A stretch of 64,000 nucleotides of DNA from an uncultured Actinomycetota bacterium (lineage in GTDB: Bacteria; Actinomycetota; Actinomycetes; Actinomycetales; Kineosporiaceae): assembly GCA_963755755.1 (NCBI GenBank), contig CAVWLJ010000009.1, positions 176,358-240,357 on the forward strand. The letters run 5' to 3'. The position numbers were made by a program, and so were the translations under genes. Position 1 is the first letter of the stretch, and each line of letters starts with the position of its first letter. The notes beneath the pieces were generated by a model that saw nothing but the letters and a program-made list of their open reading frames with translations, was not told the origin of the DNA and searched no databases. This document shows, one piece after another, positions 9,916 to 37,269 of this stretch.

Positions 9916-10032
9916 GACCACGAGCCACGACCGGCCGAACGGTGAGGTGCCCCACTCGGCGCTCGCCGCGGCGGCCTCGCCCGGACGGCGAGCGACGGGC
10001 ACCGGTGGTAGATTCGGCTCAGCTGCAGACCT

Positions 10033-10163
10033 CGCACGGGAGAGCCCGTGCCGGCCGGAATCGGCCGACGTCGGGCGCCGAAGGGGCAATTCTCCCCGGA
10101 ACCTCTCAGGCGCCAGGACCGTGCGAGCGAGGCGACTCTGGAGAGCGAGGCTGCTCGACAGAG
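10033..10163 (+). promoter_or_regulatory. Glycine riboswitch: one complete aptamer (10033-10125) plus a short ghost-aptamer-like hairpin (10136-10163), 5' of gcvP
   Basis: The aptamer reads CGCACGGGAGAGCCCGUG...GGCGCCGAAGGGGCAAUUCUCCCCGGAACCUCUCAGGCGCCAGGACCGUGCG. It carries the conserved GGAGAG, CGCCGAAGGGGCAA and CUCAGGC..AGGAC blocks, closed by a CGCACGG/CCGUGCG P1. It is followed by CUCUGGAGAGCGAGGCUGCUCGACAGAG. Confidence 0.8.
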
Positions 10164-32098: not shown

Positions 32099-34598
<2,500 letters not shown>

Positions 34599-34660
34599 GA
34601 TGTCCTCGTCTCTTCGGGTCTCGGGGGCGTCCTCGTCGTCGCCGGTCGTCGTCCGGACAG

Positions 34661-34687
34661 CAAAAGACCCCTCACGCAGGAGGGGTC
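34661..34687 (-). terminator. Intrinsic terminator/attenuator hairpin in the leuS leader
   Basis: The minus-strand RNA reads GACCCCUC-CUGCGU-GAGGGGUC-UUUUG: a perfect 8-bp stem, a 6-nt loop and a U-tract. It lies 62 nt upstream of the leuS GTG. Confidence 0.6.
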
Positions 34688-34731
34688 GCCGCGCTGTCTC
34701 CGTCCACCCCGCGGAGGGGGCGGACGTGCCG

Positions 34732-34776
34732 TCAGCGCGGCCGGCGAAGAAGGAGGATCTGCCGCACGGCTCTCAT
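34732..34776 (-). CDS. Candidate 14-codon leucine leader peptide ([14 protein letters not shown])
   Basis: AGGAG, then 4 nt, then ATG AGA GCC GTG CGG CAG ATC CTC CTT CTT CGC CGG CCG CGC TGA. There are three consecutive Leu codons, and two are CTT, which looks rare elsewhere in the window. The ORF lies directly upstream of the terminator and leuS. Confidence 0.55.
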
Positions 34777-34844
34777 CTTACTCCTGCGTGAGATCGCGGC
34801 GTGCGCGGTATTGCTCGGAGTCGGTGACCTGTGACGATGTGCGG

Positions 34845-35898
34845 ATGCAGGCGGCCGGTACCCACGACCACGGGCACGACCACGCGCACGAGCACGACGA
34901 GGCACACGAGCACGGTCACCAGCACGGTCACGAGCACGGTCAGAACCGACGGGTTGCTCGCCCGGCTGCTGCACGTGGTGCGCCCGCACAGCCACGACCC
35001 CTCCCAGTCCACCGACGAGGCGCTCGAGGCGAGCGAGGAGGGCAAGCGGGCCGTCCTCGTGAGCCTGGCGGTGCTGGGCGTCACGGCCCTGGTCCAGGCG
35101 GCCGTCGTCCTCCTCTCCGGCTCGGTCGCGCTGCTCGCCGACACCGTGCACAACCTCTCCGACGCGCTGACCGCCGTGCCGCTCTGGATCGCCTTCACCC
35201 TGGCCCGCCGTCCGGCGTCGCGGCGGTTCACCTACGGCCTGGGCCGGGTCGAGGACCTCGCCGGCCTCGTCGTCGTCCTCATGATCGCGATCTCCGCGGT
35301 CGTCGCGGCCTGGGAGAGCATCCGCAAGATCAGCGACCCCTCCCCCGTGAGCCACCTCTGGGTCGTCGTGGCAGCCGGCGTCGTCGGCTTCCTCGGCAAC
35401 GAGATCGTGGCGGTCTACCGGACCAGGGTCGGCACCCGGATCGGCTCCGCCGCGCTCGTCGCCGACGGCAAGCACGCCCAGGCGGACGGCATCACGTCCC
35501 TCGGCGTCGTCGTCGGTGCCGTCGGGGTCGCCCTCGGGTTCCCCGTGGCCGACCCGCTGATCGGCCTGCTCATCACCGTCGCGATCCTCGTCATCCTCTG
35601 GGGCGCGGTGCGCGACGTCGGGCGCCGCCTGCTCGACGGCGTCGACCCGGACCTCGTCACGCGCGCGGAGACGGTGCTCGGCGACGTCCCCGGCGTCCTC
35701 GACGTCCACGAGGTACGGGTCCGGTGGATCGGCCACCGGATGCGTGCCGACGCCGTCCTCGCCGTGGACCCCCACCTCGGTGTCGCCCAGGGGCACGACA
35801 TCGCGACGGCGGCGGGGCGCACCATGAAGGCCGCGCTCCCCCAGCTCGACGCCGTCATCGTGCACATCGAGCCGCTGGGCGTCGGCCCGCACCACTGA
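34845..35898 (+). CDS. Cation diffusion facilitator (CDF) metal efflux transporter with a His-rich N-terminus; one +1 frame break at ~34940
   Basis: ATG 34845 gives MQAAGTHDHGHDHAHEHDEAHEHGHQHGHEHG. CDF TM motifs follow: SVALLADTVHNLSDA and ADGKHAQADG. Confidence 0.85.
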
Positions 35899-35916
35899 CG
35901 CCTCTCACCGGGGCAC

Positions 35917-37269
35917 GTGACGGCGCTCACCCTGACGGCTCCTCAAGTCCGAGCGCCTGCGGCCGTAGTGCTTACCGTGGGTGCTCGCGCGGGTGATCCG
36001 CGGCGGCGGGGCCGTCGCGCGCTGCTCGTCGTCGCGCTGGCCGTGGTGGCCGTCGTCGCCTGCCCCGATGCGCCCGGGGTCGCGGCCTCGACCCCCGCGA
36101 AACCGTCCTCCTCGCCGGCCGGCAACGGCGGTTCCGCCGGCTCCGGCGGTGCCGAGCAGCAGCCGTCCGCGGCGACGCTCGCCGCCCAGGCCCGCGCGCA
36201 GGCGCTGCACCTGAAGCTGCTGGAGCAGCAGGGCGACGCGGACGCCGCCCGCTCCGCCCTCGACCGCGCCTCGCAGGCGGCCGCCGCGGCGCTCGAGAGC
36301 TACCGCGCCGCCGTCGTCGAGCAGCAGCAGGCGCAGCTCGACTCCGCCCAGGCCCAGGCGGCGCTCGCAGCAGGCCCAGCAGGACGTCGACGACCAGCGC
36401 TCGGCGCTCGGCCGCTGGGCGTTCGAGGCCTACGTCTCCGGCGGCCCGCTGCAGCACTCACCCGCGCTGCTCACGCTGCTCAGCGAGGGCACGACCGACG
36501 ACATCGCCACCGCACAGGCGGTGGTCAAGTCCGTGGGCGACGGGCAGGCCCGCGCGCTGGAGGCGCTGGAGGGCGCCCAGCAGCGCCAGCAGGCCGCGCT
36601 CGCCGCCGCGAACGCCGCACAGCAGACGGCGGACGCCGACGCCGCCCTCGCGACGGAGGCGAAGGCAGCCGCCGACGCTGCCGTCGCGGAGCACCGAGGC
36701 GCCCTGCAGCAGGCGGAGCAGGCGGTGAGCACGACCCGGAAGGCGACGGCCGGGGCCGACGGCGAGGCGGCGCTGCTGGCCGCCGCCGATGCGTACGCCG
36801 GCGGAGCCGGCGGAGCCGGCGGCAACGGGGTCACCGGCCCGGTCGGCAGCTGCACCGGAGGCGACGTCTCCGCCTTCCCCAACGGCCGCATCCCGCTGTC
36901 ACTGCTGTGCCCCGTCTGGGGCGCGCCGGGCGCGTACCTGCGGGCGGACGCCGAGTACGCCTTCGACCGGCTGAGCCACGCCTACGCCAAGGCGTTCGGC
37001 ACGCCGATCTGCGTCACCGACGCCTACCGCTCCTACCCCGACCAGGTGCGGGTCGCGGCCGAGCGGCCCGGCTTCGCGGCCAAGCCCGGGACGAGCAACC
37101 ACGGCTGGGGCACGGCCGACGGACCTGTGCGGCGGCATCGAGTCGTTCGGCACCGCGACCCACCGGTGGATGCTCGAGAACGCGCCGCTGTTCGGCTGGT
37201 TCCACCCGTCCTGGGCCGAGCCGACCGGCTCGCTGCCCGGAGCCCTGGCACTGGGAGTTCGGCGGCTGA
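35917..37269 (+). CDS. Secreted M15-family (VanY/D-Ala-D-Ala carboxypeptidase-like) peptidase with a long coiled-coil N-terminal region; three +1 frame breaks (~36369, ~37120, ~37245)
   Basis: There is a signal-like RRRGRRALLVVALAVVAVVA and an Ala/Gln-rich coiled coil. ICVTDAYRSYPDQ, PGTSNHGWGTA.DL and EPWHWEFGG are present. Confidence 0.7.
   Translation: MTALTLTAPQVRAPAAVVLTVGARAGDPRRRGRRALLVVALAVVAVVACPDAPGVAASTPAKPSSSPAGNGGSAGSGGAEQQPSAATLAAQARAQALHLKLLEQQGDADAARSALDRASQAAAAALESYRAAVVEQQQAQLDSAQAQAALAAGPAGRRRPALGARPLGVRGLRLRRPAAALTRAAHAAQRGHDRRHRHRTGGGQVRGRRAGPRAGGAGGRPAAPAGRARRRERRTADGGRRRRPRDGGEGSRRRCRRGAPRRPAAGGAGGEHDPEGDGRGRRRGGAAGRRRCVRRRSRRSRRQRGHRPGRQLHRRRRLRLPQRPHPAVTAVPRLGRAGRVPAGGRRVRLRPAEPRLRQGVRHADLRHRRLPLLPRPGAGRGRAARLRGQARDEQPRLGHGRRTCAAASSRSAPRPTGGCSRTRRCSAGSTRPGPSRPARCPEPWHWEFGG

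Follow-up and report, generated by a model that had tools for sequence, protein, structure and literature searches.

A predicted leucine-sensing attenuator in front of leuS in a Kineosporiaceae bacterium and its relatives across the Actinomycetota

In a 64,000-nucleotide stretch of DNA from an uncultured Kineosporiaceae bacterium (contig CAVWLJ010000009.1), hereafter referred to as the window, the leucine--tRNA ligase gene leuS is preceded on the minus strand by a compact leader, which almost certainly belongs to an actinobacterial family of leuS leaders. The element combines a short open reading frame (ORF) containing three consecutive leucine codons with a hairpin (P1) and an intrinsic terminator (T) that directly abuts it. 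We interpret it as a ribosome-mediated transcription attenuator of the leuL2 type, which senses charged tRNA-Leu and acts by steric coupling, and assign to this reading as a whole a probability of about 0.6. That the leader performs leucine-sensing attenuation appears likely, and regulation as such is predicted and not demonstrated by the present analysis. Elements of this kind have been known since a prediction from 2005 in Streptomyces, to which the window adds a member, and the finding is in this sense solid and not surprising. What is new is the breadth of the family, a corrected start codon, an extreme bias of the leader towards CUY and CUU codons and the absence of any antiterminator.

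The original prediction, which was made from the letters of the window, had placed on the minus strand an AGGAG (34785-34781), an ORF that starts 4 nt downstream with ATG 34776 and ends with the in-frame stop codon TGA (34734-34732), leucine codons CTC CTT CTT (34755-34747), a 10-bp hairpin, a terminator (GACCCCTC-ctgcgt-GAGGGGTC in DNA letters at 34687-34666, followed by TTTTG at 34665-34661) and a gap of 62 nt between the end of this terminator and the leuS GTG at 34598, and each of these parts is found at its place. Its central proposal of a leucine leader peptide and a terminator that control leuS gains strong support from conservation, covariation, codon bias and the match to the leuS leader of Streptomyces (PMC1262725, PMC8079986). 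The features of the leader, with their assignment revised by comparison to relatives, are in 5' to 3' order:

34774-34785, minus strand: AGGAG (34785-34781) and ATG (34776-34774) of the original prediction, probably promoter DNA
34775-34780, minus strand: candidate -10 promoter box TAAGAT, 7 nt before the GTG start and with GGAG ahead of it, assigned by homology
34732-34767, minus strand: putative leaderless leader ORF from GTG to TGA, 11 codons and stop, assigned by alignment with relatives
34747-34755, minus strand: presumed regulatory leucine codons CUC CUU CUU, codons 5-7 of the 11-codon ORF
34733-34741, minus strand: 5' arm of the basal stem of P1, GCCGCGCUG, containing the UGA of the leader, assigned by minimum free energy fold and compensatory changes
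34701-34726, minus strand: apical 10-bp hairpin of P1, CGUCCGCCCC-cuccgc-GGGGUGGACG, lineage-specific
34688-34696, minus strand: 3' arm of the basal stem of P1, CAGCGCGGC, abutting T with a 0-nt linker, assigned by fold and conservation
34661-34687, minus strand: intrinsic terminator T with an 8-bp stem GACCCCUC/GAGGGGUC and the loop CUGCGU, followed by UUUUG, assigned by terminator scan and covariation
34599-34660, minus strand: spacer between terminator and leuS, containing the leuS ribosome-binding site (RBS) GAGGA (34607-34603), conserved in the loci L180, L114 and L085
32052-34598, minus strand: leuS, encoding a leucine--tRNA ligase of 848 residues with GTG start, the presumed regulated gene, assigned by Pfam, TIGR00396 and an N-terminus that is kept in relatives

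The assignment to a family is based on 80 leuS loci that were fetched from species-representative genomes and on a scan of metagenomes. Nine high-GC actinobacterial loci carry a short upstream ORF encoding Leu-Leu-Leu, after which the two hairpins and a U-tract recur in every case. A first covariance model, derived from these loci and searched against the 80 loci and the window, finds 16 members, each immediately preceding leuS on its strand; the 64 kb of the window contain a single copy. A second model, built from 14 relatives under exclusion of the window and with a consensus structure from RNAalifold, returns one match in the 64 kb, at 34649-34768 on the minus strand, with a score of 64.9 bits and an E-value of 4.9e-16. 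Fifteen actinobacterial genomes from several lineages carry the element immediately before leuS and in its orientation, with members in Kineococcus, Trebonia, a metagenome-assembled genome (MAG) of the Frankiaceae, Pseudarthrobacter, Arthrobacter agilis, Zhihengliuella, Microlunatus, Nonomuraea and a Streptosporangiaceae MAG. The metagenome scan, which used a pattern fixing no more than the cores of the stems, matched at least 120 loci, and among the 120 matches listed, to which all metagenomic numbers in the following refer, 115 display the full architecture, with a LeuS homologue downstream wherever the contig extends far enough. The element is real and, with more than 130 instances, abundant. 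Its general layout comprises a TANNNT box, an ATG or GTG, 8-14 codons including Leu-Leu-Leu, 5 nt, P1, 0-1 nt and T, and in the genome loci and the metagenomic matches listed it is seen exclusively in front of leuS. The alignment of relatives, which had been proposed as a check of the original prediction, reveals a conserved short ORF with its leucine run and compensatory changes in both hairpins.

Both hairpins are well supported as RNA structures. A second proposed check, the folding of 34599-34790 on the minus strand, yields a z-score of -2.26 for the leader of 192 nt, which is more stable than 195 out of 200 shuffled sequences. Across the family, 93.5% of the alignment cells in P1 and T are paired compared to 42-55% in slid controls, five pairs of the two stems change on both sides and the observed covariation score exceeds that of all 500 shuffles, while in the larger metagenomic set the outermost pair of T also covaries, being paired in 99%. 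The stems contain G.U pairs, which favour a structure in RNA over a palindrome in DNA. P1 follows the consensus GCCGCGCYGAC ... GUYRGCGCGGC and T the consensus NN-CCCCUC ... GAGGGG-NN, the latter with a stem of 7-8 bp and usually 5-7 U in the next 8 nt. In the window, the basal stem of P1 contains 9 bp (34741-34733 with 34696-34688) and T is the sole terminator-like site in 1 kb, compared to 0.0 +/- 0.2 sites in shuffled sequence. The arrangement of the parts is equally conserved, with P1 starting 5 nt after the last leucine codon in every member. Among 97 unique leaders, P1 and T follow each other without a linker in 69 and are separated by a single nucleotide in 27. The 10-bp hairpin of the original prediction does exist, but not as an independent conserved hairpin: it is the lineage-specific apical part of the larger conserved P1, as the loci L180, L114 and L085 contain an apical hairpin of unrelated sequence at this place and most other members only a short loop. 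An extension of P1 into T by an A:U pair was set aside as a feature of the family, since only about half of the members allow this pair. In three loci (L027:2391-2500, L113 and L177), the 3' arm GAGGGG of T is located about 8-16 nt ahead of the leuS start codon, and the terminator hairpin would there, as judged from the sequence, also sequester the Shine-Dalgarno (SD) sequence of leuS.

The comparison with relatives has changed the assignment of the start of the leader ORF, for which the original prediction had proposed AGGAG as SD sequence and ATG 34776 as start codon. The ATG-started version begins 9 nt upstream of GTG 34767 in the same frame. The closest relatives among the matches listed are L180, whose LeuS is 93% identical to that of the window, L114 and L085. 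None of the three contains the ATG, and their leaders, read from GTG, encode MRQNLLLRRPR in L180 and L114 and MRRNLLLRQPR in L085. Instead, they carry GGAG-TACGCT or GGAG-TATTGT followed by 6-7 nt before the GTG, with which the AGGAG-TAAGAT of the window aligns, and MAFFT as well as both covariance models align the start codons of relatives with GTG 34767 and not with ATG 34776. A TANNNT box is found 6 nt ahead of the start of the upstream ORF (uORF) in all 15 genome relatives and 6-7 nt ahead of it in the metagenomic members, so that by their -10 box all of the approximately 130 relatives have a leaderless layout. No such box is found 5-8 nt before ATG 34776, and the ATG of the window itself consists of the last two bases of the -10 box and a G. 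Because AGGAG-TAAGAT aligns with the promoter of relatives and their GTG with position 34767, GTG 34767 is the most likely start of the leader ORF, in a leaderless arrangement, and AGGAG and ATG 34776 are probably neither used as SD sequence and start codon nor even transcribed. If called from the ATG, the ORF of the window would be mis-annotated. Across the family, the start set by the -10 box and the leucine codons invariably share one frame, and the first leucine position shows synonymous variation between CTG, CTC, TTG and CTT, which together argue that the ORF is translated. Its stop codon is either a TAG directly before P1 (45 of 99 unique leaders) or a TGA inside the 5' arm of P1 (54 of 99). 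The latter location accounts for the ending PR* of many peptides of the family, among them those of the window and of leuL2 of Streptomyces, as this ending is encoded by the 5' arm of P1 (CCGCGCUGA).

A further line of evidence comes from the choice of leucine codons. CTT had been noted as rare in the long genes of the window, and counting confirms this, with 12 of 977 leucine codons (1.2%) in long ORFs of high third-position GC and none of the 67 leucine codons of leuS. In 99 unique metagenomic leaders, CTT accounts for 43.4% of the leucine codons compared to 1.5% in the adjacent leuS of the same contigs, where 82% of leucine codons are CTG. This corresponds to an about 30-fold enrichment and an odds ratio of about 50, with p-values that are only indicative since the sequences are not independent. 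The first leucine is mostly encoded by CTG, whereas at the second and third position the ratio of CUY to CUG is 196:1. By standard wobble rules, CUC and CUU are decoded by tRNA-Leu(GAG), and leader peptides are known to employ rare or isoacceptor-specific codons. With three consecutive leucine codons and an enrichment of the rare CUU, the ORF thus shows the run of cognate codons that characterizes classical attenuators. The conserved G-CUY-CUY of the leader also resembles the 5' arm of T (R-CCCCUC) and could pair with GAGGGG via G.U wobbles. Such pairing is unsupported: T is far more stable, and a CUG at the second leucine position disrupts the pairing in L034, L038, L002 and L094. The resemblance may be a by-product of codon choice or a functional feature. 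In the locus L029, which has the terminator GCUCCUC/GAGGAGC, the mimicry of the terminator arm by the leucine codons is nearly perfect.

The original prediction had spoken of a classical attenuator, a description with which the absence of a conserved antiterminator is at odds. We have folded 16 members under constraints that represent four states, without ribosome, with the A site at the last or the previous leucine codon and with the ribosome at the stop codon, and have scanned about 100 unique leaders for mutual information between the ORF, the ends of the P1 loop, the linker, the T loop and a tail of 60 nt. The scan detects no alternative pairing and only one extra base pair of the terminator. 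P1 and T share no nucleotides. In constrained folding, a ribosome stalled at the leucine codons leaves at least 8 bp of P1 intact, whereas a ribosome at the stop codon abolishes P1. When the last leucine codon occupies the A site, about 12 nt separate the base of P1 from the start of the P-site codon, a distance that in ribosome helicase and footprint data marks the mouth of the mRNA channel. Two alternative pairings had been proposed, of CCCCUC (34719-34714) with GAGGGG and of GGGGU (34710-34706) with ACCCC. The complementarities are present in the window but absent in relatives, and we rejected them as a mechanism of the family because they rest on the variable apical insert. A third candidate was the pairing of the leucine stretch UCCUC-C-UUCUUCG (34757-34745) with the region of the leuS RBS, CGAAGAG-AC-GAGGA (34616-34603, minus strand), with -14.7 kcal/mol and a z-score of -1.66 in the window. 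It was equally rejected, since the mean z-score in the family is -0.09, only 4.7% of members fall below a p-value of 0.05 and the pairing is not conserved even in the closest relatives, and it is in the window probably fortuitous. What stays conserved is the geometry, with 5 nt between leucine codons and P1 and 0-1 nt between P1 and T.

From the observed parts of the element, their conservation and covariation, the codon bias and the geometry, we infer a possible mechanism, and with it where transcription starts, that the ORF is translated, in which direction leuS is regulated and how the ribosome is sterically coupled to T. Transcription would start from TAAGAT at GTG 34767, or 1 nt before it, and a ribosome would load on the leaderless 5' end and translate the 11 codons. 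At plentiful Leu-tRNA, the ribosome would enter the 5' arm of P1, where the UGA resides, and unzip P1, upon which T would fold freely and most transcripts would stop near 34662. At scarce Leu-tRNA, it would wait at CUU with its leading edge against the intact P1, leaving no free RNA between ribosome, P1, T and polymerase, so that T would stay incomplete and transcription would read through into leuS. With P1 folded, the effective distance between ribosome and T would thus amount to a few nucleotides, and decoding of the CUY codons together with the unzipping of P1 would free 20-50 nt of slack, which would permit T to act. P1 might in addition work as a pause hairpin synchronising ribosome and polymerase, for which the fact that most T loops begin with N-U-G about 10-11 nt after P1 is weak evidence. 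The steric coupling of a stalled ribosome to T is possible though doubtful, and we propose with even more reserve that the folded P1 would serve as a rigid adaptor between the two, which would define a widespread type of attenuator without antiterminator helix, where both the default and the starvation state are ON. The ON state of an untranslated leader in the steric model would suit an essential gene that lacks its own promoter.

A number of observations weigh against leucine-sensing attenuation with steric coupling. In equilibrium folding of the 16 members, T forms in all ribosome states with probabilities between 0.75 and 1.0, and neither constrained folding nor the mutual-information scan reveals a conserved antiterminator pairing in the family. 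The metagenomic sample was retrieved by a pattern that fixes the stems and its members are not phylogenetically independent, and four loci (L027, L045, L048 and L119) carry just one or two leucine codons. The proposed direction, from starvation to read-through, is drawn by analogy from other synthetase leaders, and the steric coupling would be only partly precedented, as in the cases of PMC4824070 the ribosome covers terminator nucleotides whereas here it would act via a folded hairpin. The literature yielded no leucine-response experiment for any leuS leader. In the ilvB leader of S. coelicolor, replacement of the putative regulatory codons had no effect (PMC1262725), which illustrates that predicted actinobacterial leaders do not always function as assumed.

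Four other explanations have to be weighed against these data. A reversed polarity, which we regard as unlikely, would make P1 and T a two-hairpin terminator, where a ribosome that has passed the leucine codons melts P1 and lowers termination, so that leuS would be on during fast decoding, when leucine and translation capacity are sufficient, and off when ribosomes stall. The abutting hairpins (0-1 nt) would indeed stack into one long helix, and adjacent hairpin clusters are claimed to promote intrinsic termination in the available part of PMC8355165. In the absence of an antiterminator, the sign of regulation is also not readable from the RNA. Yet T has on its own the standard features of an intrinsic terminator, with 7-8 GC-rich base pairs and 5-7 U, the rare leucine codons would under reversed polarity permanently depress an essential gene, and synthetase leaders such as T-boxes and attenuators of the pheST kind are in textbooks generally understood to derepress on starvation. 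It appears improbable that there is no leucine sensor at all and that T is a constitutive leaky terminator, with the leaderless ORF serving another purpose such as ribosome loading or re-initiation for leuS, protection of the 5' end from decay or the production of a trans-acting small RNA or peptide. Re-initiation of ribosomes from leader genes has been proposed for bacteria in the available part of PMC4833913, two products of an attenuator of Sinorhizobium, rnTrpL and peTrpL, have trans-acting roles, as described in the accessible parts of PMC7298713 and PMC7968998, and some members of the family keep a single leucine codon. Against this reading stand the conservation of the leucine run and of the extreme CUU/CUY bias in several lineages, the fixed spacing to P1 and the finding of the element only before leuS. 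The leader stop is moreover separated from the leuS start by two stable hairpins and 60-250 nt, and a pairing between the leucine region and the leuS RBS is not conserved.

Quite improbable, in our view, is a trans-acting factor, for example LeuS, NusA or NusG, which would bind the stems GCCGCGC/GCGCGGC and CCCCUC/GAGGGG and set termination, with the leader ORF modulating access to them. The stem sequences are across distant lineages unusually invariant for simple hairpins and no coupling based on RNA alone was found, but where stems vary they do so by compensatory change, the loops are not conserved and no motif resembling the identity elements of tRNA-Leu is seen. Hardly credible is finally a classical three-hairpin attenuator where the apical hairpin would act as antiterminator by pairing of GGGGU 34710-34706 with ACCCC or of CCCCUC 34719-34714 with GAGGGG. 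The complementarities exist in the window and a ribosome at the UGA stop lowers the predicted probability of T from 1.0 to 0.75. This sole predicted effect occurs with a ribosome that is not stalled and thus has the wrong sign, the pairings of 5-6 bp would have to compete with a terminator of 8 GC-rich base pairs, and the apical sequence is unrelated in L180, L114 and L085 and missing in most members while the rest of the element is conserved. We retain leucine-sensing attenuation by the translating ribosome as preferred interpretation.

The distribution of the element among Actinomycetota is patchy, as close LeuS relatives with an identity of up to 83% lack the leader. It is absent upstream of leuS in L001 (83% LeuS identity), L005 and in loci of Nanopelagicales, Leifsonia, Microbacterium, Nocardia and Propionibacteriaceae, and the approximately 330 nt upstream of leuS in L001, L005, L003, L007, L023, L026, L036 and L046 contain neither the leader nor a known RNA element. 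Where present, the leader precedes two divergent lineages of LeuS, with about 850 and about 930-990 residues and a mutual identity of 35-41%, both of which pass the cut-off of TIGR00396 (such as L099, L109, L162 and L188 compared to L180 and L089). The leader should thus either be older than these lineages or have moved between them. The leuS leader element is not contained in Rfam 15. Searches with Rfam found no curated family at the leader site (33000-37000 at E-values up to 10, and the whole window at the gathering threshold), and the T-box covariance model remained unmatched in 33000-37000 at E-values up to 10. The five remaining metagenomic matches of the 120 listed (L127, L140, L173, L196 and L200) were discarded, as they contain an unrelated low-GC element, near-identical in the five contigs (GACCTCCCCG-GCCGCGCCGAC-about 30 nt-GATCGGCGCGGCC-CCCCTCCTCGAAGGAGGGG), which has neither U-tract nor leucine ORF nor leuS and matches the pattern by chance. 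From its sequence, it looks like a dispersed repeat of another phylum.

The identity of leuS in the window is established by a Pfam match and by NCBIfam TIGR00396 with 883 bits (cut-off 548). Its upstream neighbour is oriented divergently:

34831-35898, plus strand: gene of a CDF cation-efflux transporter, divergent from leuS, assigned by Pfam PF01545 and PF16916

The region in front of leuS is consequently a true 5' leader and not the end of an upstream gene. A minus-strand ORF of 387 residues that ends at the stop codon of the leader runs antisense to the CDF gene; it is unmatched in Pfam and was dismissed as a shadow ORF. The spacer between T and leuS (34599-34660) is too short for a promoter and none was matched in it, leaving leuS without a promoter of its own downstream of T. 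A scan of the region for promoters of the E. coli type found nothing, as expected for actinobacterial promoters. In the CDF gene, an ATG-started His-rich frame (MQAAGTHDHGHDHAHEHDEAHEHGHQHGHEHGQ, 34845-34945, plus strand) rests on a CACGAG/12-nt tandem repeat at 34863-34942 and is out of frame with the Pfam-supported body of the transporter, whose frame reads TSTVTSTVTSTV at this place; an apparent frameshift, an error of the assembly or a true start further downstream could account for this. Elsewhere in the window, a glycine riboswitch aptamer (RF00504) at 10027-10131 on the plus strand scores 60.8 bits compared to a gathering score of 32 and is the sole curated RNA family of Rfam in the 64 kb at the gathering threshold, and the window contains no tRNA genes.

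The family points to a way in which many Actinomycetota may match the amount of an essential synthetase to how well one tRNA-Leu isoacceptor is charged. Benzoxaborole antibiotics target LeuRS, and derepression of a leuS leader could influence the susceptibility to these compounds. As a compact natural system of about 100 nt, which is probably leaderless and contains two abutting hairpins and no antiterminator, the element would also suit studies of signalling from the ribosome to a terminator.

In the classical enterobacterial attenuators of trp, leu and pheST, overlapping helices 1:2, 2:3 and 3:4 compete with each other and a stalled ribosome melts 1:2. The leuS leader shares with them a short ORF of cognate codons, the use of rare or isoacceptor-specific codons, a terminator before the gene and, in case of pheST, a synthetase as target. 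It differs in its helices, which do not overlap and offer no 2:3 alternative, so that an antiterminator exclusive with the terminator is missing, in a stalled ribosome that spares the first helix, of which at least 8 bp remain, instead of disrupting it, and in its probably leaderless mRNA. The original prediction had regarded leader-peptide attenuation of a synthetase gene as unusual, a view that is for Actinobacteria superseded by the literature: for S. avermitilis and S. coelicolor, 'classical attenuators' in front of leuS were already predicted by Seliverstov et al. in 2005, in a work that predicts attenuators for leuS and trpS of Streptomyces and cites pheST of gamma-proteobacteria as a similar case (PMC1262725). 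It speaks of an antiterminator hairpin, whereas none is conserved in the family described here. From RNA-seq data of S. lividans TK24, Droste et al. have in 2021 annotated leuL2 (SLIV_24828, MRAVRLLLSEPR*) upstream of leuS (PMC8079986). Like the window leader, leuL2 is located directly upstream of leuS, with an ORF of 9-14 codons containing three leucines, which is leaderless in Streptomyces and, as judged by the -10 box, in the relatives, and which is followed by a hairpin and a U stretch. Its peptide pattern M-R-x-x-R-LLL-x-x-P-R* compares to MR(AVR)QILLLRRPR* in the window, and other peptides of the family include MRAVRLLLT*, the commonest, and MRPVRLLLS*, as well as ...LLLAEPR* and ...VRLLLAGPR* before the long LeuS. 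The window differs from leuL2 by two extra residues before LLL, the apical stem that enlarges P1 and the fortuitous in-frame ATG upstream. For Streptomyces, homology of the RNA stems is suggested by the peptide, whereas RNA homology of the window leader was shown to 15 other Actinomycetota with the model that excludes the window.

Other systems resemble the element in function or in single properties. T-box leaders, found in Firmicutes and with ileS also in Actinobacteria (PMC1262725), do the same job of coupling synthetase expression to tRNA charging, from a 5' leader with a terminator or a helix that sequesters the SD sequence. In contrast to the leuS leader they bind uncharged tRNA directly and do not require translation, and the site in the window matches neither T-box nor any other Rfam family. 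The polycysteine uORF attenuators of mycobacteria, as far as described in the accessible part of bioRxiv 10.1101/834739, are leaderless actinobacterial short ORFs that form the first cistron, as is predicted for the leuS leader, and they too use codon runs of one amino acid to sense its supply and to control downstream genes. They act on cysteine genes and no canonical terminator is described for them in this part, whereas the leuS family has a conserved canonical terminator and no conserved pairing between leucine codons and the leuS RBS. The closest precedent for the proposed coupling is provided by repression through ribosome proximity of the pyrBI type, where, according to PMC4824070, the position of the ribosome and not an antiterminator prevents termination: an E. 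coli terminator located a few nucleotides after a stop codon is almost fully repressed, and full efficiency is reached beyond about 30 nt. In the cases described there, the ORF extends up to or into the terminator, whereas the leuS leader ORF ends at least 30 nt upstream of T, and ribosome and terminator would come into proximity only as long as P1 is folded.

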